64,000 nt of DNA from Candidatus Cloacimonadales bacterium (GTDB lineage: Bacteria; Cloacimonadota; Cloacimonadia; Cloacimonadales; DAONDQ01). The position numbers and the translations under genes were made by a program. The stretch is taken from the NCBI GenBank assembly GCA_963662275.1, contig OY759316.1, forward strand, positions 1,472,001 to 1,536,000. The letters are read 5' to 3'. The notes beneath the pieces were generated by a model that searched no databases, was not told the origin of the DNA, and saw nothing but the letters and a program-made list of their open reading frames with translations. The first letter of the stretch is position 1. Each line of letters opens with the position of its first letter. This document shows positions 3,451 to 53,282 of the stretch, piece by piece.

Positions 3451-3805
3451 AAGATAATCCATTACCTGTAAAAAGCAAGGAAAACAACATGTAACATAAT
3501 AAGCATTTCCCATCATAGACATGATTGGATATGCTGTTGAACAAGCTCAAGTAGCAGGGTGATTTTGAATATGTATTTGGAAATTGCTTTTTGAAGATTT
3601 CTTGGGTTGAATTGGATTTTTACAATTTTAGCAGAGTCTTTTACCAATGGAAGAGATGATTTTCTTTTCAGAAGTTATCAAATCACTTTGAGATCAGACT
3701 TTTTGTGTATGGGCTGATATTGTTTTCAAGTATTTTAGCAAATTGCCTGTAATATTTCGGTTGTTTCTATAATTTAGGCAAGACAATCCCGTCGGTAAAA
3801 TTAAC

Positions 3806-8749: not shown

Positions 8750-10642
8750 GGAGATGTCCCGAAACTAGCATGATTTTATTTTCTTCTGTTGTAAAATATG
8801 TGATTGTTTTTACAGGCAAACTAAATTACTCAATAGTTTCCGAAAAGCGATGCAAAGACAAGGAAAAACGGAGTAATATTTACCTAATTCATGTTTGAAT
8901 TCTGGTAGGAAGAGTCTTCATCAGGCTTTTCCTTCAGTATTTTGTAAGTGCAGAAACATTTTCCCTATATTATGTCCTAAAAAGAGGAGGGATAACTGTT
9001 CCTTGCATTTTCTCAATGAACGGACAGTAAATCTCTCAAACTTCCTGTTCCACTTCATGAAAGCAAATACAGCCTCCGGTTCGATGCCTCTTTGCTTTCT
9101 CAGCTTGTCGCCTTTTTCAGAAAGCAGATTATTGACTGTCTGACGTTTTAGTGGAGCTATATGAGGATCGTAGGTCAGTGATTTATGTGTTTTATCCTTG
9201 TAGGGAATACACTTTTTATTGTGAGGACATTCTCTGCAGTCATTACATATATAGGTTTTCACGATTCGTTTCGGACCGTTCTTCTCTGTCTCTTCTTCCT
9301 TGATTTTGACCAGTCTCCGATTAAATTGACAGACCCACTCATCATGCTCCTCATCATAGCTGAAGCCTGTCAGAAGAGAGTCCCGATAATCTCTCTTATA
9401 ATCCTGGGTCTTGAGATAGCTTGTTATCTCTTTTTCAGCAGCATAATTCAAATTCAGCGCAGTGCCATAGGCAGCATCTCCAACAACGTCGGTAGGATAT
9501 TGTCCCAATTCATCATGCATTTGCTCCATGAGATTGGGAAATTCAACGGTTTCTTTAGGGATATTGAATAAGTGAATGCCTGTGACAAATTGCTCTGAAG
9601 TTCCGATACTGGCAACATAACCCGGTGCCAGCTGTCCATTTTTCAATCGCATAAATGTGGCATCATTATCAGTCTTGGATGTGCTGCTGCGTCCTTCTCC
9701 AATTATCTCAAGCTGTTGCTCATATTTCTCCAGCTTAGTTATATCATTGCTCTTTGATTTGGAGATTTCGCGCAAAAGAGATTTGATTTTCTTGATAGCC
9801 CGAGTATCTGACGGATGATTTTTCTGTAGTCGGGACATTGCTTCTTTCAGCTTGTTTTCTGCTGAGACCAGTCTATCTCTGATCTGTTCAGATGCGACTG
9901 TAGCAGTTTTCTCTGATTCAACCGCATGCAATTGCTCACCAAGCTCAAGAAGATCAGCGGTTCCATATTGCTGTTGCTCTTCCTGATTATATTCCTCGAT
10001 CTTTTTAAACAATCCCTCAACTCGTGTCTTGACCAGTTCCTGATAACGAAGCGCATTGCTTTTCCAGATGTAGGAATTCTTGCCGGCATTTGCGTGAATC
10101 GTCGTCCCGTCAACAAAACAGGTGTCGAGATCAAGATATCCTAATGATGATGCTTTCAGTACTACCTGATAAAATACATCAATAAGAATATCAGAACACT
10201 TAGTCCAGGCAAAGGTGTTGATCGTTCTGAAATCAGGTTCCTGTTCTCCTGCCAGCCAGATAAAATTGATGTTCTCCCGAACAGCCTTAGCTATCTTCCG
10301 ACAGGTATAAATACCATTGATATAGGCATACACAATGATCTTCAACATCATCTTGGGATGATAAGCAGGTGTACCTTCATCAGAGTATCTTGTATATAGC
10401 TCAGATAAGTCCAGTTGCTCAACGACATCGTTAACATAACGAACCATGTGCTGGGGAGGTATTCTCTCTTCAATATTAAGTCCATAGAGTGTCCCCTGAT
10501 TCGGATTGTGCTCTCTGAAATTCATAATTCTCTCTATGCTTAGTTTTTAAAGGCAACAATACACCCTATAACAATATGTCAAGTAATATGATTAATATTT
10601 AATAGTTGCTATTTTTCTATCATTTAGTTTCGGGACATCTCC
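8750..10642 (-). mobile_element. IS1182-family insertion sequence
   Basis: Perfect 18-bp terminal IRs GGAGATGTCCCGAAACTA / TAGTTTCGGGACATCTCC; no flanking direct repeat seen. Confidence 0.9.
8921..10525 (-). CDS. IS1182-family DDE transposase
   Basis: AYHPKMMLK, PDFRTI, VDGTTIHANA, SKTDNDATFMR, DAAYG, CxxCxxCP, IEPEAVF. Confidence 0.93.
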   Translation of the reverse strand: MNFREHNPNQGTLYGLNIEERIPPQHMVRYVNDVVEQLDLSELYTRYSDEGTPAYHPKMMLKIIVYAYINGIYTCRKIAKAVRENINFIWLAGEQEPDFRTINTFAWTKCSDILIDVFYQVVLKASSLGYLDLDTCFVDGTTIHANAGKNSYIWKSNALRYQELVKTRVEGLFKKIEEYNQEEQQQYGTADLLELGEQLHAVESEKTATVASEQIRDRLVSAENKLKEAMSRLQKNHPSDTRAIKKIKSLLREISKSKSNDITKLEKYEQQLEIIGEGRSSTSKTDNDATFMRLKNGQLAPGYVASIGTSEQFVTGIHLFNIPKETVEFPNLMEQMHDELGQYPTDVVGDAAYGTALNLNYAAEKEITSYLKTQDYKRDYRDSLLTGFSYDEEHDEWVCQFNRRLVKIKEEETEKNGPKRIVKTYICNDCRECPHNKKCIPYKDKTHKSLTYDPHIAPLKRQTVNNLLSEKGDKLRKQRGIEPEAVFAFMKWNRKFERFTVRSLRKCKEQLSLLFLGHNIGKMFLHLQNTEGKA

Positions 10643-10824
10643 TTAAATTATTCTCAATTTATTGACATTGACTGGGCTATTATCTGCCATCCATGCAGGA
10701 TTCGGAAGTATTTTCTGTTTATTTCCACCCACCCATAGCTGACGCTATGGGCTATCATCTTGCATACATGTGGGAATTGTTCATTCGTTGATGCTCCCCC
10801 ACCCATAGCTGACGCTATGGGCTA

Positions 10825-12694
10825 GTACGATAGTGATAGATAGAAATCGGATGGGTGCAAGTCCCATTTCAGGCTACGTCATGCCTGGTAGTCTATGTAA
10901 CTGCTTCATCGTGAGATGGGGTGGGGAGTAACAAATGACGAAACAGCAGTCCGTAGGATAACGAACTCGATTCGGCAGGATACAATGTCGAGCTTGCTAG
11001 CCTTAAGCGAAGACCAAAATCTTCTGGAATGATGCACTTCGGGTGAACCGGAGTTTCCCCCGGAAGATGGCAGACAGGCTGAGATGACGTGCAAAAGCCA
11101 TGTACTGATTGTATCAAGTGACTGGAGACGGAATGTTGTGAAGGTTTCTATCTCAAGCTATGAGACCTGCTGATGGGAAGAGACATCAGCAGGAGTCAGA
11201 GTGTTCATAGTAGCGATGATATTCAGGACACTATAACCTGAAAGTAGCGAAGGGGCACAGGAAAATGAATTTTGAAAGGAGTATTGATGGAAGATCAACG
11301 TTCATTATTGCCGAAAACGGCTAAACAAGAACGAGAAATCCCTCCGCAATGGAGTTGGGTGGAACCGTCAGTATGGTCTGACAAAATGTTGGCAGCGCTC
11401 GAAATGGGCGTCAAAGGTGGAAAATGGTTCAGTCTGATAGACAAGGTATATGCCATGGCAAACCTTGCATCAGCTTGGAAACACGTGGCATCCAACAGAG
11501 GTAGTGCCGGTATCGACAATGTCAGCATCCAGCACTACAAAAGACATGCGCTGGCAAGATTAGTACGAACCTCCGAACTGTTGCAAAAGGAAGCGTATCA
11601 ACCCAATGGAATCAAACGTGTCTGGATAGATAAACCGGGCAGTAAGGAAAAGAGACCTTTGGGCATACCGACCGTCACGGACAGAGTAGTACAAACAGCA
11701 CTGCGCAATGTAATCGAACCGATATTTGAACAGGGATTTGCCGAACACAGTTATGGCTTTCGTCCCAAACGCGACTGCAAAGATGCTTTAAGACAAGTCG
11801 ATGGACTTCTCAAGCAGGGATACGTCTTTGTTGTGGATGCAGACCTGAAAGGATACTTTGACAGTATACCGCAGGACAAGCTGATGAAGCGTGTAGGAGA
11901 AAAGATAGCAGACGGGAAAGTTCTGAATCTTATCAATGACTATTTGAATCAAAAAGTAATGGATACAACGTCAACCTGGACACCGGAAACGGGAACACCT
12001 CAGGGAGCAGTTATCAGTCCATTACTGGCAAACATTTATCTGAATCCTCTGGACTGGCTTATGGCAGGCAAAGGCTATAGAATGATACGCTATGCGGATG
12101 ATTTTGTAGTCATGTGTCAAAGTCGAGAGGAAGCAGAAATGGCTTTATGTACAATAGGCGAATGGGTTGAAAAAGCAGGTCTGGTTTTGCATCCTGAAAA
12201 GACTAAAATACTGGACGCAGAAACGGAAGCGGTGGAATTTTTAGGATACCACTTCTTCAAGGGTAAAAGATACCCCAGACAGAAGAGTATCAACAAGTTC
12301 AAAGACAGCATCCGTAAATGTACCGGACGCAGTAATGCCCACAGCTTACAAACCATAATAGCTAAAATCAAGCCGATTCAAAGAGGTTGGTTCGAGTATT
12401 ACAAACACTGTTACAAAACAGTCTTTCCTAACTTGGATGGCTGGGTAAGACACAGGCTACGCAGTATCCTCAGAAAGAGGAAAAAGCGCTATGGTATTGC
12501 CACAGGAAAAGACAATATCAGGTATCCAAATTACATCTTTGATAATGCTGGGTTTTTCTCATTAACCAAAGCCCATCAGGAATTATGTCAATCTCTTAAA
12601 TGAGAACTCGTTTTCTGGAGAGCCGTATGCGGGAGAACCGCACGTACGGTTCGGAGGGAGGGGAGCCAGTAATGGATTACTCCCCTACCCCTAT
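10825..12694 (+). mobile_element. Group II intron, copy 1 (1870 bp)
   Basis: 5' GTACG, 3' ...CCCCTACCCCTAT; domain V GAGCCGTATGCGGGAGAACCGCACGTACGGTTC; removal restores the repeat GGGCTA|TCATCT. Confidence 0.95.
11287..12603 (+). CDS. ltrA: Group II intron reverse transcriptase/maturase, no endonuclease domain
   Basis: RPLGIPTVTDR, SYGFRP, GTPQGAVISPLLANIYL, YADD; likely ATG start at 11287 after AAAGGA. Confidence 0.95.
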   Translation: MEDQRSLLPKTAKQEREIPPQWSWVEPSVWSDKMLAALEMGVKGGKWFSLIDKVYAMANLASAWKHVASNRGSAGIDNVSIQHYKRHALARLVRTSELLQKEAYQPNGIKRVWIDKPGSKEKRPLGIPTVTDRVVQTALRNVIEPIFEQGFAEHSYGFRPKRDCKDALRQVDGLLKQGYVFVVDADLKGYFDSIPQDKLMKRVGEKIADGKVLNLINDYLNQKVMDTTSTWTPETGTPQGAVISPLLANIYLNPLDWLMAGKGYRMIRYADDFVVMCQSREEAEMALCTIGEWVEKAGLVLHPEKTKILDAETEAVEFLGYHFFKGKRYPRQKSINKFKDSIRKCTGRSNAHSLQTIIAKIKPIQRGWFEYYKHCYKTVFPNLDGWVRHRLRSILRKRKKRYGIATGKDNIRYPNYIFDNAGFFSLTKAHQELCQSLK

Positions 12695-12834
12695 TCATCT
12701 TGCATACATGTGGGAATTGTTCATTCGTTGACGCTCCCCCACCCATAGCTTACGCTATGGGCTATCATCTTGCATACATATGGGAATTGTTCATTCGTTG
12801 ACGCTCCCCCACCCATAGCTGACGCTATGGGCTA

Positions 12835-14704
12835 GTACGATAGTGATAGATAGAAATCGGATGGGTGCAAGTCCCATTTCAGGCTACGTCATGCCTGGTA
12901 GTCTATGTAACTGCTTCATCGTGAGATGGGGTGGGGAGTAACAAATGACGAAACAGCAGTCCGTAGGATAACGAACTCGATTCGGCAGGATACAATGTCG
13001 AGCTTGCTAGCCTTAAGCGAAGACCAAAATCTTCTGGAATGATGCACTTCGGGTGAACCGGAGTTTCCCCCGGAAGATGGCAGACAGGCTGAGATGACGT
13101 GCAAAAGCCATGTACTGATTGTATCAAGTGACTGGAGACGGAATGTTGTGAAGGTTTCTATCTCAAGCTATGAGACCTGCTGATGGGAAGAGACATCAGC
13201 AGGAGTCAGAGTGTTCATAGTAGCGATGATATTCAGGACACTATAACCTGAAAGTAGCGAAGGGGCACAGGAAAATGAATTTTGAAAGGAGTATTGATGG
13301 AAGATCAACGTTCATTATTGCCGAAAACGGCTAAACAAGAACGAGAAATCCCTCCGCAATGGAGTTGGGTGGAACCGTCAGTATGGTCTGACAAAATGTT
13401 GGCAGCGCTCGAAATGGGCGTCAAAGGTGGAAAATGGTTCAGTCTGATAGACAAGGTATATGCCATGGCAAACCTTGCATCAGCTTGGAAACACGTGGCA
13501 TCCAACAGAGGTAGTGCCGGTATCGACAATGTCAGCATCCAGCACTACAAAAGACATGCGCTGGCAAGATTAGTACGAACCTCCGAACTGTTGCAAAAGG
13601 AAGCGTATCAACCCAATGGAATCAAACGTGTCTGGATAGATAAACCGGGCAGTAAGGAAAAGAGACCTTTGGGCATACCGACCGTCACGGACAGAGTAGT
13701 ACAAACAGCACTGCGCAATGTAATCGAACCGATATTTGAACAGGGATTTGCCGAACACAGTTATGGCTTTCGTCCCAAACGCGACTGCAAAGATGCTTTA
13801 AGACAAGTCGATGGACTTCTCAAGCAGGGATACGTCTTTGTTGTGGATGCAGACCTGAAAGGATACTTTGACAGTATACCGCAGGACAAGCTGATGAAGC
13901 GTGTAGGAGAAAAGATAGCAGACGGGAAAGTTCTGAATCTTATCAATGACTATTTGAATCAAAAAGTAATGGATACAACGTCAACCTGGACACCGGAAAC
14001 GGGAACACCTCAGGGAGCAGTTATCAGTCCATTACTGGCAAACATTTATCTGAATCCTCTGGACTGGCTTATGGCAGGCAAAGGCTATAGAATGATACGC
14101 TATGCGGATGATTTTGTAGTCATGTGTCAAAGTCGAGAGGAAGCAGAAATGGCTTTATGTACAATAGGCGAATGGGTTGAAAAAGCAGGTCTGGTTTTGC
14201 ATCCTGAAAAGACTAAAATACTGGACGCAGAAACGGAAGCGGTGGAATTTTTAGGATACCACTTCTTCAAGGGTAAAAGATACCCCAGACAGAAGAGTAT
14301 CAACAAGTTCAAAGACAGCATCCGTAAATGTACCGGACGCAGTAATGCCCACAGCTTACAAACCATAATAGCTAAAATCAAGCCGATTCAAAGAGGTTGG
14401 TTCGAGTATTACAAACACTGTTACAAAACAGTCTTTCCTAACTTGGATGGCTGGGTAAGACACAGGCTACGCAGTATCCTCAGAAAGAGGAAAAAGCGCT
14501 ATGGTATTGCCACAGGAAAAGACAATATCAGGTATCCAAATTACATCTTTGATAATGCTGGGTTTTTCTCATTAACCAAAGCCCATCAGGAATTATGTCA
14601 ATCTCTTAAATGAGAACTCGTTTTCTGGAGAGCCGTATGCGGGAGAACCGCACGTACGGTTCGGAGGGAGGGGAGCCAGTAATGGATTACTCCCCTACCC
14701 CTAT
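12835..14704 (+). mobile_element. Group II intron, copy 2, apparently identical to copy 1
   Basis: Same termini and junction, offset 2010 bp from copy 1. Confidence 0.95.
13297..14613 (+). CDS. ltrA: Group II intron RT/maturase, copy 2
   Basis: Translation identical to copy 1. Confidence 0.95.
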   Translation: MEDQRSLLPKTAKQEREIPPQWSWVEPSVWSDKMLAALEMGVKGGKWFSLIDKVYAMANLASAWKHVASNRGSAGIDNVSIQHYKRHALARLVRTSELLQKEAYQPNGIKRVWIDKPGSKEKRPLGIPTVTDRVVQTALRNVIEPIFEQGFAEHSYGFRPKRDCKDALRQVDGLLKQGYVFVVDADLKGYFDSIPQDKLMKRVGEKIADGKVLNLINDYLNQKVMDTTSTWTPETGTPQGAVISPLLANIYLNPLDWLMAGKGYRMIRYADDFVVMCQSREEAEMALCTIGEWVEKAGLVLHPEKTKILDAETEAVEFLGYHFFKGKRYPRQKSINKFKDSIRKCTGRSNAHSLQTIIAKIKPIQRGWFEYYKHCYKTVFPNLDGWVRHRLRSILRKRKKRYGIATGKDNIRYPNYIFDNAGFFSLTKAHQELCQSLK

Positions 14705-15092
14705 TCATCTTGCATACATGTGGGAATTGTTCATTCGTTGACGCTCCCCCACCCATAGCTTACGCTATGGGCTATCATCTTGCATACATATGGGAATTGT
14801 TCATTCTTTGACGCTCCCCCACCCATAGCTTACGCTATGGGCTATCATCTTGCATACATATGGGAATTGTTCATTCGTTGACGCTCTCCCACCCATAGCT
14901 TACGCTATGGGCTATCATCTTGCATACATATGGGAATTGTTCATTCGTTGACGCTCCCCCACCCATAGCTTACGCTATGGGCTGATCATCTGGCATCCCA
15001 TCGCTCACGATATAGGTTTGAATTTTAGATTGACATCATAGCATAAATATGGAATAAATTGTTTAATCATTCTCAGAAAAGGGAAGCATGAT

Positions 15093-40741: not shown

Positions 40742-43693
40742 TTACTTCATCAGGATGATCTTCCTTGAGGATAGTGAATTCCCATCTTTCACCTGGACAA
40801 GATAAATACCACTCGGACAGGTTACATTCTTTGCATCAGTTCCATCCCAGGATAGATTATATTCACCCGCATTCTTCATACCTGTAGCCAATGTACGAAT
40901 GTGCTGTCCTTTCAGATTATAAATTTCAATCTTCACATCGGATGTTTTTGTGATCGAGAAGGGAATACTCACTGATTGATTGAAAGGATTTGGATACATA
41001 TTTTGTAAAACAAGATTCCCATTACTCGTGGGGGTTTGAGGAGTGTCAGGTGTACCTTTCCCTTTTAAGGTCAGGTTGAATGTTGGATAGAAACCGACTC
41101 GGGCTTCTTTTCCGCCACTGACATCAGTAATACCAAATACAAGGGTATGATCATCAGCCATCATATCAGTATTTCTGACTTTGATCGTAATTTCCTTTGG
41201 AGTTGAACATCCAGCCGGGAAAACAACTGTTTGTGGGACAAAGTTCTCAACTTCATTTGAATCCCCATCCCTGAAGATGATCTGGGCAATTGTGGGTTCA
41301 GTTGGGCTTGGATTTTCTATCGAAACATTCATTGTTACAGTACCGGTTTCCTTATCGAAGGCAGCACTTGCAGGACTGAATCCTAACACTGTATTAGTCG
41401 CTTTCGTTCCGTATACACTGGATACATATTCCGGGTGATCAATATACGGATTGCGATTTGTCAGGAAGGTCTTGATAGATGCATTACGATTAAATTCCCA
41501 GGTACTAACCGGATCAGCAGTATTCCAAGCGAGCATCGTGGGCAGCATATCCACACCGTCTATACTTAGGCTCATCTCGTAACGAGTGTTGAAATACAAC
41601 AATGCCCTAGCGCAATCACCTTTGTGTTGGGCTGATGGTTCAAACACAGTCTGTCCTGCTGCATTTGTTCCCCGTTTGCTGACATAGCCATTATATGAAG
41701 AATAGGTTGTTGTTTGAGTTGTTACTACACCATAGGGTATATTTCCCCTGGAAGAATTAACACCGGAGTTAGTAGGGAAAAGATGATGCAGATCCGCTGT
41801 CTTTTGATTCACTTCACTTGTGCCCATCCAGCTTTGGCAGAATGTATGCTCTGTATTTGGATCCGTACTGCCGGTATAGGTTGTTCCAACAGTATAATTC
41901 TGACCGATATACACACATTGAATAACATTTCCGGCTGTCAAATCGAGGGTTTGATACAGATACACTTTTGCTCCTGAATAACTTGAATATGTATTTGTAG
42001 AAATCAGATTATGTAAGCCTGTCTTTAATGCTGCACCGGTAAGACCTGCAACAGGAGTGTAATAACCATTGAATGGATCAGTGGCAGTGGTAGTCGCAGA
42101 AATAGTATTCGAGGAAGCACTCGTGCCGTAAGTGTTATAGGCTCGTACTCTGTAATAGTATATAGTAGAAGCACTTAATCCTGTCACTGATTTGGTTGTT
42201 GTTGTGACTACAAGATTATTGAAACCGGTGACGAAAGTACCGAATGAGTTACTTGTGGAGACATCCAGGTAATAACCTGTTGCACCTGTGGAAGCATTCC
42301 AGTTTGCCGTGAAACTGTTCAATGTAATCGAAGAGGCTGTTATCGCTACAGGTGCGGATGGTGCTGAACCGGCAGTACTGGTAGTAAAAGATAGATCAGT
42401 TCCATATGCAGTGCCAGCGCTGTTGGTTGCATAAGCTCTGACATGATAGAGCGTTGATGCAGTTAATCCTGTAATAGCGCTTGTGAATGTACCAGTACCA
42501 GTACCATTGGTTGTATGGTTTCCTGTTGCTACTGGATTTGCTGTCGTAGCCCAGCATACACCTTTTGCCGTGACAGAAGCTCCGCCATCAGCGGTAACAT
42601 TTCCTCCACTTGTGGCAGTTGTTGATGTGATTGCAGAGGGAGTAGTCGTTGAAACTGTCGGTATGACTGCTGCAGGGGTACTTGTAGTAAAAGACAGATC
42701 AGTTCCATAAGCAGTACCAGCGCTATTGGTCGCATAAGCTCTGACATGATAGAGCGTTGATGCAGTTAATCCTGTAATAGCACTTGTGAATGTACCAGTA
42801 CCAGTGCCGTTTGAAGTATGGCTTCCTGTTGCTACGGGATTTGCTGTTGTAGCCCAGCATACACCTTTTGCTGTGACAGAAGCTCCGCCATCAGCGGTAA
42901 CATTTCCTCCACTTGTTGCTATGGTTGTTGTTATTGCTGATGGAGTAGTAGTCGATACTGTCGGCACAGTAGCTGCAGCTCCTGCGGCAGTGATGGATAC
43001 ATTATCAATACCCAATCCTTGGGCATTTGTGGTTGTAGTACCGGATGTGACTGAATAATTCCAGGCAAGATATAGACTGCTTCCAGTTGCTAGTGTTGTC
43101 GTGAGTGTTTTACTCGTAACATTTGAAGTACTCCCGGGAGCAGTGGTGAAACCATTATTATCGGCATTGGCAGCAAAAGAAGTCAGGAAGTTTGCTCCCG
43201 CTGATGTCCATGTTGTTCCATTCGTTGAATAATACATTTGAATTGAATAACCAGCAGCATTTGAGCCATTCCGATATTTCTCAACACCATAAGAAATTGT
43301 GAAACTTGAAATAGAAGATGTTCCATTATTAGTTAATATCGTATATAGATTACCGCTAACTGTACCAGTTCCAGATGAAATCCAGCCTACAGCGCGATCT
43401 GTGGCAGTACTGGCAACACCGGCTCCATAATTGTAAATTCCGTTTCCAGCAGTGGAAGACATAGAATTTCCTGCTGATAGAGCTGTCGCTGTTAAAGCTG
43501 CAGAATATGTCCCCAATGTCCGAGCTGTAGTATTCTTATCTACCTTCCATCCGGTAGGTAAGGTTGCGGTAGCGCTTGTTCCAATGGTGAACCCTTCGGT
43601 TATGTTACCACCGGCACTTATGTTTATGGCTGAAAGGGTGGATATCGTAACCATAAAAATAAGAAGAATATAAACTAGATTCTTTTTCAACAC
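40742..43693 (-). CDS. Extracellular endonuclease I (EndA-like) with FN3 repeats and FlgD-like C-terminus
   Basis: NTEHTFCQSW, DLHHLFP..VNSSRGN, KGDCARALLYF, RNPYIDHPE; 303-bp internal duplication; likely GTG start at 43693. Confidence 0.85.
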   Translation of the reverse strand: MLKKNLVYILLIFMVTISTLSAINISAGGNITEGFTIGTSATATLPTGWKVDKNTTARTLGTYSAALTATALSAGNSMSSTAGNGIYNYGAGVASTATDRAVGWISSGTGTVSGNLYTILTNNGTSSISSFTISYGVEKYRNGSNAAGYSIQMYYSTNGTTWTSAGANFLTSFAANADNNGFTTAPGSTSNVTSKTLTTTLATGSSLYLAWNYSVTSGTTTTNAQGLGIDNVSITAAGAAATVPTVSTTTPSAITTTIATSGGNVTADGGASVTAKGVCWATTANPVATGSHTSNGTGTGTFTSAITGLTASTLYHVRAYATNSAGTAYGTDLSFTTSTPAAVIPTVSTTTPSAITSTTATSGGNVTADGGASVTAKGVCWATTANPVATGNHTTNGTGTGTFTSAITGLTASTLYHVRAYATNSAGTAYGTDLSFTTSTAGSAPSAPVAITASSITLNSFTANWNASTGATGYYLDVSTSNSFGTFVTGFNNLVVTTTTKSVTGLSASTIYYYRVRAYNTYGTSASSNTISATTTATDPFNGYYTPVAGLTGAALKTGLHNLISTNTYSSYSGAKVYLYQTLDLTAGNVIQCVYIGQNYTVGTTYTGSTDPNTEHTFCQSWMGTSEVNQKTADLHHLFPTNSGVNSSRGNIPYGVVTTQTTTYSSYNGYVSKRGTNAAGQTVFEPSAQHKGDCARALLYFNTRYEMSLSIDGVDMLPTMLAWNTADPVSTWEFNRNASIKTFLTNRNPYIDHPEYVSSVYGTKATNTVLGFSPASAAFDKETGTVTMNVSIENPSPTEPTIAQIIFRDGDSNEVENFVPQTVVFPAGCSTPKEITIKVRNTDMMADDHTLVFGITDVSGGKEARVGFYPTFNLTLKGKGTPDTPQTPTSNGNLVLQNMYPNPFNQSVSIPFSITKTSDVKIEIYNLKGQHIRTLATGMKNAGEYNLSWDGTDAKNVTCPSGIYLVQVKDGNSLSSRKIILMK

Positions 43694-50925: not shown

Positions 50926-51028
50926 TGCATAAATAAACGAGAAATTTAAGGGCTATTTACTGCATAAATAAACGAGAAATTTAAGGGCTATTTACTGCAT
51001 AAATAAACGAGAAATTTAAGGGCTATTT
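50926..51028. repeat. 35-bp tandem repeat x3
   Basis: TGCATAAATAAACGAGAAATTTAAGGGCTATTTAC at 50926, 50961 and 50996. Confidence 0.95.
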
Positions 51029-52512: not shown

Positions 52513-53282
52513 TTCAGCGATATACTAATAAGCAATTGCAGGTTTCACTTGGGATCAGCAGACAGGCAGTGGATAAACGTGCTCTCAAGGAAGGCTGGAA
52601 GTCAGAAATCGTTTATGAACGTGGTACGCACAATAAATATTATTGGGTGGACCTGCAAAGCAACCAAAGCAACCAAAGCAACCAAAGCAACCAAAGCAAC
52701 CAAAGCAACCAAAGCAACCAAAGCAACCAAAGCAACCAAAGCAACCAAAGCAACCAAAGCAACCAAAGCAACCAAAGCAACCAAAGCAACCAAAGCAACC
52801 AAAGCAACCAAAGCAACCAAAGCAACCAAAGCAACCAAAGCAACCAAAGCAACCAAAGCAACCAAAGCAACCAGTTGACTCCCGAAGAGCGGGCGGAGCT
52901 AGATGCAATCAATGTTGTACTGCGTAAGAGGGTATGGTGGAAGCCATTTAAGAACGAAAAAGGACTATATCCATACCGATTGAATGATGGACCTGTGGTT
53001 TTGGCGACTTTTAGCACAATGGAATCGTTCAAAGACTATTTTGGACCCAATGACAAAGTAAAGTTTTTAGTCGATAATGAATATCAGGAAATCAAGATGA
53101 TCCGCTTTGATATGCCTGATATTATGGTGAGTTTAGAGCCGATGGATATGACCAACACCGAGGAACTGGAGACCTTCCTGGCTATCGGCTTGGAAAACTG
53201 TTTGATATGGATGGATGAGGAAGCAGGAAGCAACCTGAAGGATGCTACTACCGATGCTACAACCAAGAGGGAGGAATCATGA
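52509..53282 (+). CDS. Mu-type DNA-binding domain protein with a (QSN)24 tract
   Basis: LGISRQAVDKRALKEGW resembles a Mu HTH. Confidence 0.65.
   Translation: MIQRYTNKQLQVSLGISRQAVDKRALKEGWKSEIVYERGTHNKYYWVDLQSNQSNQSNQSNQSNQSNQSNQSNQSNQSNQSNQSNQSNQSNQSNQSNQSNQSNQSNQSNQSNQSNQSNQSNQLTPEERAELDAINVVLRKRVWWKPFKNEKGLYPYRLNDGPVVLATFSTMESFKDYFGPNDKVKFLVDNEYQEIKMIRFDMPDIMVSLEPMDMTNTEELETFLAIGLENCLIWMDEEAGSNLKDATTDATTKREES
52656..52871 (+). repeat. Perfect 9-bp microsatellite (CAAAGCAAC) x24, in frame
   Basis: 216 bp / 9 = 24 copies. Confidence 0.95.

Follow-up and report, generated by a model that had tools for sequence, protein, structure and literature searches.

A group II intron that probably selects DNA hairpins with a five-nucleotide guide occupies a REP-type hairpin array in a Cloacimonadales genome

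A window of 64,000 nucleotides from Candidatus Cloacimonadales bacterium (assembly GCA_963662275.1, contig OY759316.1, positions 1,472,001 to 1,536,000 of the forward strand) carries a tandem array of short DNA hairpins that is interrupted by two copies of a group II intron. The genome is one closed 4.38-Mb contig (G000, in which the window is G000:C1:1472001-1536000), and it was analysed together with relatives from the Cloacimonadales. We consider it very probable that the intron belongs to an endonuclease-less lineage, here called lineage X, whose targets are chosen in the manner of class IIC introns by a hairpin and a 5-nt guide, and that it landed in an array of the repetitive extragenic palindromic (REP) type. 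Coordinates are those of the window unless given as genome positions, and the features are collected in Table 1.

Eight hairpin units had been counted in a preliminary description of the window, and direct reading and a scripted search both returned the same eight. All of them have a stem of 8 bp (CCCATAGC/GCTATGGG) and a 4-nt loop (TKAC) that reads TGAC in H1, H2 and H4 and TTAC in the other five, with CTA directly 3' of H1–H7 and CTG after H8. Tandem Repeats Finder reported a period of 70 for 12695-12834 (2.0 copies, 97%) and for 14705-14996 (4.2 copies, 96%), and the hairpin, folded as single-stranded DNA, reached -8.3 kcal/mol (z -4.87), a value as good being found in 0 of 200 shuffles. 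Both introns split the sequence GGGCTA|TCATCT, 3 nt past the stem; comparison with the empty units leaves their ends unambiguous and agrees with the common junction described before. The further empty landing sites that had been claimed are also present, as H1, H3, H5, H6 and H7 are identical in hairpin, intron-binding site 1 (IBS1) and 3' exon.

The two introns are 100% identical over 1870 nt, and the ribozyme is compact, with approximately 550 nt outside the open reading frame (ORF). Matches to the Rfam model of domains V and VI (RF00029, model positions 1-77) stop exactly at 12694 and 14704, with 63.6 bits compared to a gathering score of 40. The ORF, located in domain IV, encodes a group II reverse transcriptase (RT)/maturase (TIGR04416, 378 bits compared to a cut-off of 300) of 438 amino acids, which consists of RVT_1 (137 bits) and GIIM (63 bits) only and lacks an endonuclease domain. 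The 5' end, GUACG, departs from GUGYG by one base; it is also found in the Cloacimonadales copies and in the relatives from Cupriavidus and at locus L016, whereas most relatives begin with GUGCG. No sigma-70-like site was found in a promoter scan of 10400-11300, which does not exclude transcription.

Six full copies of the intron, all 100% identical, and one 272-nt 5' fragment are present in the genome. The REP hairpin followed by GGGCTA forms the 5' flank of four of the six full copies, another is located after CCGGGC-TTAC-GCCCGG and GTGTTA, and the remaining one, like the fragment, is located after the bulged hairpin CGCCGGAT-TGAA-ATCCGAGCG and TTA. The flanks of all seven sites fold as DNA hairpins, and what they have in common is a hairpin with G-Y-U-A ahead of the junction, while TCATCT is the common 3' exon of the REP copies and the 3' exons at the non-REP copies differ. 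In addition, three older 5' remnants (approximately 140 nt) of a related intron, 80% identical, follow CCGCGTAAATGCGG and AGCTA, AGCAA or AACTA. These remnants, at genome positions 3889159, 514388 and 2539200 (minus strand), are all broken off near the same point, with unrelated sequence beyond.

The preliminary description had concluded that the intron targets a REP family and had proposed mapping all genomic copies as a check. The four full copies at REPs agree with that conclusion, but the mapping also revealed copies in unrelated targets, an outcome that the description had named as refuting and that is thus observed in part, namely two full copies and the fragment at unrelated hairpins and the three remnants at yet another. 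Since copies, fragment and remnants follow unrelated hairpins, the target appears to be a hairpin with a short IBS1 and not the REP sequence as such. Hairpins with four of five IBS1 matches are used as well, and REP, with its perfect 5/5 IBS1 behind a good hairpin, is thus the best and most abundant target in this genome, where 25 sites have a perfect hairpin with GGGCTA and 4 of these are occupied. A search for the orthologous empty site with 2 kb of downstream sequence matched nothing in one genome of the same genus (G001, 99% complete, 240 contigs).

The targeting rule was assessed across lineage X in a sample of 19 loci from species genomes, 80 metagenome loci (51-60% identical, kept from 595 confirmed relatives among 601 candidate stretches) and one Cupriavidus plasmid copy (49.6% identical). 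With a profile built on columns 1-200 of the intron, the 5' end was placed in 77 introns; a pattern found a 9-nt loop with a short closing stem in 68 of these, and 64 of the latter had at least 10 nt of exon. Loop positions 3-7, the exon-binding site 1 (EBS1), form five of five pairs with the last five exon bases in 49 of the 64 introns and four of five in another 10; the other 5 introns have fewer pairs, although in two of these the pattern seems to have missed the loop. The pairing is kept while the sequence changes, as 41 different EBS1 sequences occur among the 64 introns and the mean number of pairs is 4.55 (49 distinct combinations), compared to 2.26 for re-dealt exons (standard deviation 0.15, maximum 2.82, 2000 trials) and approximately 2.0 in shifted registers. 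A scan that made no use of the loop agreed: in 50 of 63 introns the complement of the exon-end 5-mer falls on a single alignment column (window 10998), and the next best column reaches 5. The loop TAGCCT at 10998-11003 in a GCTT/AAGC stem had been singled out before as the partner of the exon end; loop and stem are present, and UAGCC at 10998-11002 covaries with the exon, but the sixth base is left without support. A sixth EBS1 pair with T11003 was rejected, as it holds in 17 of the 64 introns, which is the chance level. For exon positions -6 to -15, no pairing column within the first 260 nt of the alignment was shared by more than 5 of the 63 introns, and EBS2 is therefore taken to be absent.

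An uninterrupted stem of at least 6 bp, with its end 0-5 nt upstream of the junction (mode 3), is present in 55 of 68 5' exons (minimum length 40 nt, two intron-to-intron junctions excluded); in 200 shuffles the mean was 6.6 exons and the maximum 14. These hairpins are not terminators, since T accounts for a fraction of only 0.21 at the six exon positions next to the junction; the exon ends in CTA at 21 of 64 sites. In the genome G016, which has an RT 66% identical to that of the window, all six copies follow hairpins, five of them at one hairpin (two compensatory stem variants) with CTA or CTC and the sixth at a related GC-rich hairpin.

At three loci of the sample, L009 (the whole contig), L091 and L103, the intron 5' end abuts the 3' end of another copy (the 5' exon ends in ...CTACCCCTAT), and at L103 the EBS1 forms only 3 of 5 pairs with this neighbouring-intron "exon"; these junctions may represent tandem introns, circles or assembly loops. 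Five loci from three Cloacimonadales metagenome-assembled genomes (L002, L003, L004, L008 and L014, ~3518-3520) have an in-frame TGA at the same place in a related RT. It lies in a 9-aa insert (EKTKIF*KF) that separates the RT domain from the maturase domain, and the frame beyond it stays intact despite many substitutions between copies. Conserved read-through or a two-piece protein are possible explanations.

That the intron is a sequence-specific, non-IIC homing intron with the REP itself as its homing site, as first proposed, now seems unlikely. This explanation would account for the predominance of REPs among the full copies, with their perfect 5-bp match and shared 3' exon, and would be in line with a domain V of near full length with an AGC triad and with an RT clade apart from the IIC references. 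It does not account for the two full copies, the fragment and the three remnants at other hairpins with different 3' exons, or for the lack of pairing beyond 5 bp and of an EBS2, and relatives use dozens of unrelated hairpins with an EBS1 that varies along with them.

The preferred reading, a hairpin combined with a short guide, can be put in mechanistic terms. Comparison of the sites and of the relatives shows a DNA stem-loop together with pairing of EBS1 UAGCC to IBS1 GGCUA, the five bases ending at the insertion point, which comprise the last two stem bases and CUA, with no second exon pairing. The particle of lariat and RT would reverse-splice into the hairpin when its strand is single-stranded at the replication fork, and the nascent lagging strand may then prime reverse transcription. 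Both steps are modelled on IIC introns that have been solved and tested, as described in the available parts of PMC10190682, PMC1702495 and PMC4424553. Judged by cumulative GC skew, replication starts near 4.16 Mb and ends near 2.15 Mb, and 6 of the 7 copies, fragment included, are co-oriented with replication; similarly, 4 of 16 co-oriented REP sites are occupied, compared to 0 of 9 others. This pattern fits insertion into the lagging-strand template, which is described for endonuclease-less introns in the portions available of PMC4424553 and PMC10190682.

The nature of the repeat was followed up genome-wide. A pattern search for the hairpin returned 32 copies, 18 on the plus and 14 on the minus strand; their extended consensus is ...GGG-CTA-TCATCT-G.CATCC, and they include compensatory variants of the stem (GC..GC versus AT..AT). 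The gene of a 147-aa IS200-like Y1 transposase (PF01797, 100.6 bits; genome 1450973-1451413) has repeat hairpins on both sides in opposite orientations, and one intron copy occupies the hairpin adjoining its 3' end. We take this layout to be that of a REP with its REP-associated tyrosine transposase (RAYT). The earlier proposal of a REP family is thus borne out by the 32 pattern copies and by the RAYT gene beside one cluster, and their adjacency suggests that the transposase is the cognate one. Three Y1 paralogues (genome 440475-440888, 3137201-3137626 and 4083465-4083896), which are RAYT-like and 33-51% identical to the transposase beside the intron, have hairpins resembling the Rfam family RF01687 (Acido-Lenti-1) within 5 kb, and there are several REP/RAYT systems in this one genome.

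The array units themselves score 25.1-27.2 bits against RF01687, below the gathering threshold of 37, and retain only the first hairpin of the Acido-Lenti-1 motif. Searching the whole genome yielded 47 matches at E <= 1, ten of which are above 37 bits (37.9-52), and in a control on 14 well-known genomes no match was above the threshold. Moreover, the Rfam seed has a conserved GGCUA after the first stem, which equals the IBS1 of the window intron. Acido-Lenti-1 goes back to Weinberg 2010 (PMC2864571, table and seed alignment), and it is described as of unknown function in the parts available of two preprints (bioRxiv 10.64898/2026.10.21.760802 and 10.64898/2026.02.09.704811). In the literature searched, no paper tied it to introns or to RAYT. 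The results point to the copies in this genome being a DNA repeat rather than a small RNA (sRNA) gene, and they strengthen the case for Acido-Lenti-1 of Rfam as a RAYT-associated DNA repeat.

Two occupied sites had been reported in the array. Two introns are indeed present, but this does not imply two homing events. Over their 2010 positions the blocks 10825-12834 and 12835-14844 show only two differences (12797/14807 and 12821/14831), and they stay identical for another 32 nt to the left. The spacer after a TGAC hairpin is always catGtggg and that after a TTAC hairpin catAtggg, and with G and T standing for these two types, the units follow one another as G, G+intron, T, G+intron, T, T, T, T, an order that makes the array look like a duplicated "G+intron, T" block. 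If the intron homed once and 2010 bp ("intron + 2 units") were then duplicated in tandem, through unequal crossover or slippage between the 70-bp units, the second occupied site would be a copy, and we regard this history and two separate homing events as about evenly balanced. Besides the near identity and the unit order, the duplication is favoured by the chance of independent homing into two of the three TGAC units among seven valid sites, which is 3 in 21; the loop does not decide occupancy, since a TTAC hairpin elsewhere (genome 924590) is occupied. On the other hand, a simple crossover predicts that unit 6 is identical to the parent of unit 4, yet the two differ at 12797/14807, and the 140 bp of flank would need to have gained an extra mutation during a time in which 2 x 1870 bp (3.7 kb) of intron remained unchanged. 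An older 140-bp doubling of empty units with two subsequent insertions fits equally well, and an array of this kind is a place where repeated homing is expected.

Identical 1.9-kb repeats within a 70-bp array are hard to assemble, and none of the short contigs from four public runs spans the region, as they break at the repeats. An assembly artefact, in which the two-intron array was put together from one intron copy, is nevertheless very improbable. The stretches 12676-12740, 12734-12810 and 12791-12862 are covered without a mismatch by short contigs from one public run, which leads from the intron end through units 3 and 4 to the next intron start, and the last contig carries the C at 12802, a base by which units 4 and 2 can be told apart. 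This mismatch-free path through units 3 and 4 makes collapse or expansion during assembly less likely, and the genome itself is one closed contig; the run may, however, come from the window's own sample, in which case its support is not independent.

A second intron family in the same genome is of the terminator-type IIC kind. Its 11 copies each lie directly behind a stem with a T-run, and all 11 are co-oriented with replication. The RT is 39-40% identical to that of the window intron, domain V has a 3-bp distal helix with AGC, and domain I scores 51.6 bits with RF02001. The two families share out the hairpin niche, with terminators and their T-runs taken by one (11 copies) and REP-like hairpins by the other (6 copies).

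Hallmarks of class C, according to the part available of PMC1702495, include an IBS1-EBS1 pairing of 3-4 bp, a domain V distal stem that is 2 bp shorter and CGC in place of the AGC triad, and the portions available of two reviews call stem-loop targets peculiar to class C (PMC4424553, PMC7923331). The window intron shares with IIC introns the stem-loop target, the absence of EBS2 and of an endonuclease domain, and the small size. For reference, domain V of the integron attC intron L119 and of the Bacillus plasmid intron L120 has CGC and a 3-bp distal helix. CGC is not universal in IIC, however, since the terminator-type intron of this genome (L032) also has AGC. In domain I, an 11-nt bulge, GUGGGGAGUAA, after a GNRA hairpin aligns without gaps to UCUGAAGGAAg of RF02001 (the epsilon' AGGAA motif), with a fitting length and a sequence that agrees only in part. 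L119 and L120 score 125-135 bits with RF02001, which is thus the IIC domain I model; the window intron reaches 31.9 bits, just under the gathering score of 32, and this is the only D1-D4 model that matches it, RF01998 giving no match in the Rfam scan. The relatives L038 (34.4 bits) and L016 (46.8 bits) pass RF02001.

Compared to RTs of solved structure, the window RT matches those of IIC introns best (7uim, 216 bits; 6ar1, 210 bits), ahead of TeI4h (149 bits) and LtrA (128 bits). On the same structures the RT of the terminator-type intron scored 290/281 versus 160 and a non-IIC control 202/184 versus 196, and from these scores lineage X leans towards IIC, yet stands further off than a typical IIC RT. 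RT trees of 39 and 42 rows were computed with quick IQ-TREE runs (LG+G4, support from the Shimodaira-Hasegawa-like approximate likelihood ratio test, SH-aLRT) on a small reference set. Copies identical within G000, Cloacimonadales copies with stops and incomplete ORFs were not included, and the metagenome rows were reduced to a random draw of 14. Lineage X forms one clade (SH-aLRT 95) in both trees and is not nested among the IIC references. RT phylogeny had been suggested earlier as the way to assign the class; the outcome is a clade of its own, and the approximately unbiased (AU) test does not reject lineage X and IIC as one clade (p 0.158). Identity of lineage X with Toro's g1 or g3 was also considered and rejected, because Ni.ha.I1 (g3/F) and Sr.me.I2 (g1; labels from Toro, Table S2, PMC3552965) are, like Rh.sp.I1, only 34-36% identical to the window RT, and all three are separate from lineage X in the tree. 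Lineage X is a widespread, common and uncharacterised RT clade.

Several observations weigh against an intron that chooses its targets like IIC introns by hairpin and guide. In domain V the AGC triad of the preliminary description is present where IIC has CGC, and its claim of full length comes close, with 33 nt being one pair short of the 34-nt standard form; the distal helix of 4 bp with a 5-nt loop is thus only 1 bp shorter, not the 2 bp of IIC, and IBS1 has 5 bp rather than 3-4 bp. Rfam typing of domain I in the metagenome relatives gave a weak and mixed picture, with 24-26 bits to RF02001 or RF02003, and in the RT trees a branch supported at 99 or 95 divides lineage X from the IIC side. 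As for the targets, control windows 60-100 nt downstream of introns hold hairpins in 14 of 45 cases, which we attribute to the clustering of repeats, and hairpin and pairing cannot both be complete, because IBS1 overlaps two stem bases. No column covaries with the first 3'-exon base, and EBS3 was not located, as this base varies too little (C in 39 of 55 relatives). The orientation bias at the REP sites (4/16 versus 0/9) is not significant, and the tandem copies are perhaps not independent. Finally, the case for splicing and mobility rests on motifs that are intact and on copies that are 100% identical.

Taken together, the statement that this is not a class IIC intron holds for the domain V hallmarks, which do differ, but is misleading on mechanism, given the stem-loop target, the lack of EBS2 and endonuclease, and an RT nearest to those of IIC. 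The intron appears to work like a IIC intron, and its membership of class C is left open. That it is a divergent member of class C and no separate lineage has, in our estimation, somewhat less than an even chance. The window RT matches the solved IIC RTs with 61-67 bits more than the IIB RT, a margin that is only +6 for the non-IIC control, the AU test and the AGC triad of the terminator-type intron are compatible with membership, and class C ORFs outside the main node have been noted by Toro and Martinez-Abarca (PMC3552965). In the other direction, the free tree sets lineage X apart from the IIC references, the score with RF02001 is far below that of typical IIC introns, RF01998 gives no match, and the lengths of domain V and IBS1 differ. 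A more tentative proposal is that lineage X is a separate, widespread class outside class C, in which stem-loop targeting is shared or was gained independently, and which has specialised on RAYT-type REPs by means of a freely evolving 5-nt EBS1, tuned in each host to the conserved tail of the REP stem (CTA in 21 of 64). If lineage X did lie outside class C, stem-loop targeting would not be unique to IIC, and if it were in addition specialised on REPs, the orphan "Acido-Lenti-1 sRNA" would be a REP that serves as a landing pad for a second layer of mobile DNA.

Table 1. Features of the hairpin array, its introns and their surroundings (window coordinates unless marked as genome).
Feature	Position	Strand	Remarks
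Tandem array, eight 70-bp units, interrupted by two introns	10730..14984	+	Unit of 45-nt spacer and 25-nt REP hairpin with CTA tail
Hairpin H1	10732..10751	+	Loop TGAC; empty GGGCTA|TCATCT
Hairpin H2	10802..10821	+	Loop TGAC; occupied; IBS1 GGCTA at 10820-10824
Hairpin H3	12742..12761	+	Loop TTAC; empty
Hairpin H4	12812..12831	+	Loop TGAC; occupied
Hairpin H5	14752..14771	+	Loop TTAC; empty
Hairpin H6	14822..14841	+	Loop TTAC; empty
Hairpin H7	14892..14911	+	Loop TTAC; empty
Hairpin H8	14962..14981	+	Loop TTAC; tail CTG, last IBS1 base mismatched
Group II intron, copy 1	10825..12694	+	1870 nt; 5' GUACG, 3' ...CCCUAU
EBS1 UAGCC	10998..11002	+	In a 9-nt loop at the tip of the domain I d arm; closing stem GCUU/AAGC (10992-11008)
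RT/maturase ORF	11287..12603	+	438 aa from ATG; RVT_1 and GIIM
Domain V	12620..12652	+	33 nt; AGC triad; 4-bp distal helix and 5-nt loop
Domain VI	12655..12694	+	Bulged A at 12687; 3' end AU; RF00029 alignment
Group II intron, copy 2	12835..14704	+	Identical to copy 1; EBS1 13008-13012, ORF 13297-14613, domain V 14630-14662
IS1182-family insertion sequence	8750..10642	-	Transposase 8921-10525; ~180 nt upstream of the array; context, separate from the intron
Terminator-type intron copies	Genome 724198, 735128, 857516, 1537432, 1751151, 1771775, 2211300, 2371802, 3113482, 3649956, 4255685		1537432 lies 1.4 kb past the window end

The insertion sequence of the IS1182 family upstream of the array has 20 copies of approximately 1893 bp in the genome. 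A copy lies less than 200 nt from four of the five loci with the window intron (the array counting as one locus; other genome sites near introns are 756335-758228, 926492-928386 and 1447035-1448927), which is far above chance for 20 copies in 4.38 Mb, and an exact REP hairpin lies less than 200 nt from only 3 of the 20 copies. Could this proximity reflect a preference for the same targets, or spacers that act as a permissive "junkyard"? The window also contains further tandem repeats, at 1859-2039 (45-bp x4), 50926-51028 (35-bp x2.9, 100%), 52656-52873 (9-bp x24, 100%) and 42375-42964 (303-bp x1.9).

The results supply a targeting rule, hairpin plus 5-nt programmable guide, for a common intron lineage in one genome and about 60 relatives. 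For genome annotation, they imply that full retroelements can be present within REP arrays between genes, and that such arrays can lengthen in steps of kilobases. It has been published before that endonuclease-less introns target stem-loops and that mobile DNA uses REPs as targets, and no new principle is put forward here.

REP, BIME and REPIN elements with their RAYT (TnpA-REP) transposase are reportedly the subject of work by Nunvar in 2010, Bertels and Rainey in 2011 and Ton-Hoang in 2012. The repeat described here resembles them in its short palindrome, in the conserved tail by the stem (TAG on the other strand), in its dozens of copies in both orientations and in the clusters that flank a Y1 gene. 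It differs from them in forming a direct tandem array with a 70-bp period, and its tie to RAYT is one of adjacency. With Acido-Lenti-1 (RF01687; table and seed alignment in PMC2864571), the genome has in common ten copies above the threshold and the GGCUA after the first stem that equals IBS1, whereas the array units have the first hairpin only and score 25-27 bits compared to 37.

That REP hairpins serve as landing sites for other mobile DNA is also seen in the available part of Tobes and Pareja 2006 (PMC1525189), where insertion sequences were located at REPs and a group II intron of Pseudomonas putida KT2440 was at REPs in 2 of 9 copies; that portion of the paper gives counts only, while a pairing rule and a hairpin requirement across a lineage are added here. 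The IIC-attC introns of integrons (L119, from a Klebsiella plasmid; PMC4424553 and PMC7923331, in the parts available), a sub-lineage of IIC, are similarly specialised on one repeated family of hairpin-forming DNA, but their targets are attC bottom strands with a TTGT/T consensus, in contrast to the REPs of a RAYT system and an EBS1 tuned to GGCUA.

The closest comparison is with the IIC introns themselves, represented by the available portions of the accounts of B.h.I1 (PMC1702495) and of the E.r. intron ribonucleoprotein on a DNA stem-loop (PDB 7UIM, PMC10190682). Shared features are the endonuclease-less RT, the compact ribozyme, insertion after a stem-loop, EBS1-IBS1 pairing on the 5' side only and an RT that is nearest to the solved IIC RTs; the 11-nt bulge can be aligned to the IIC motif but agrees with it only in part. 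The window intron differs from them in hairpins that are GC-rich, REP-like and without a T-run, in AGC with a 4-bp distal helix, in its separate RT clade and in the 5' end GUACG, and the EBS1 of its lineage has 5 nt and varies freely, where that of IIC introns is A-rich and has 3-4 nt.

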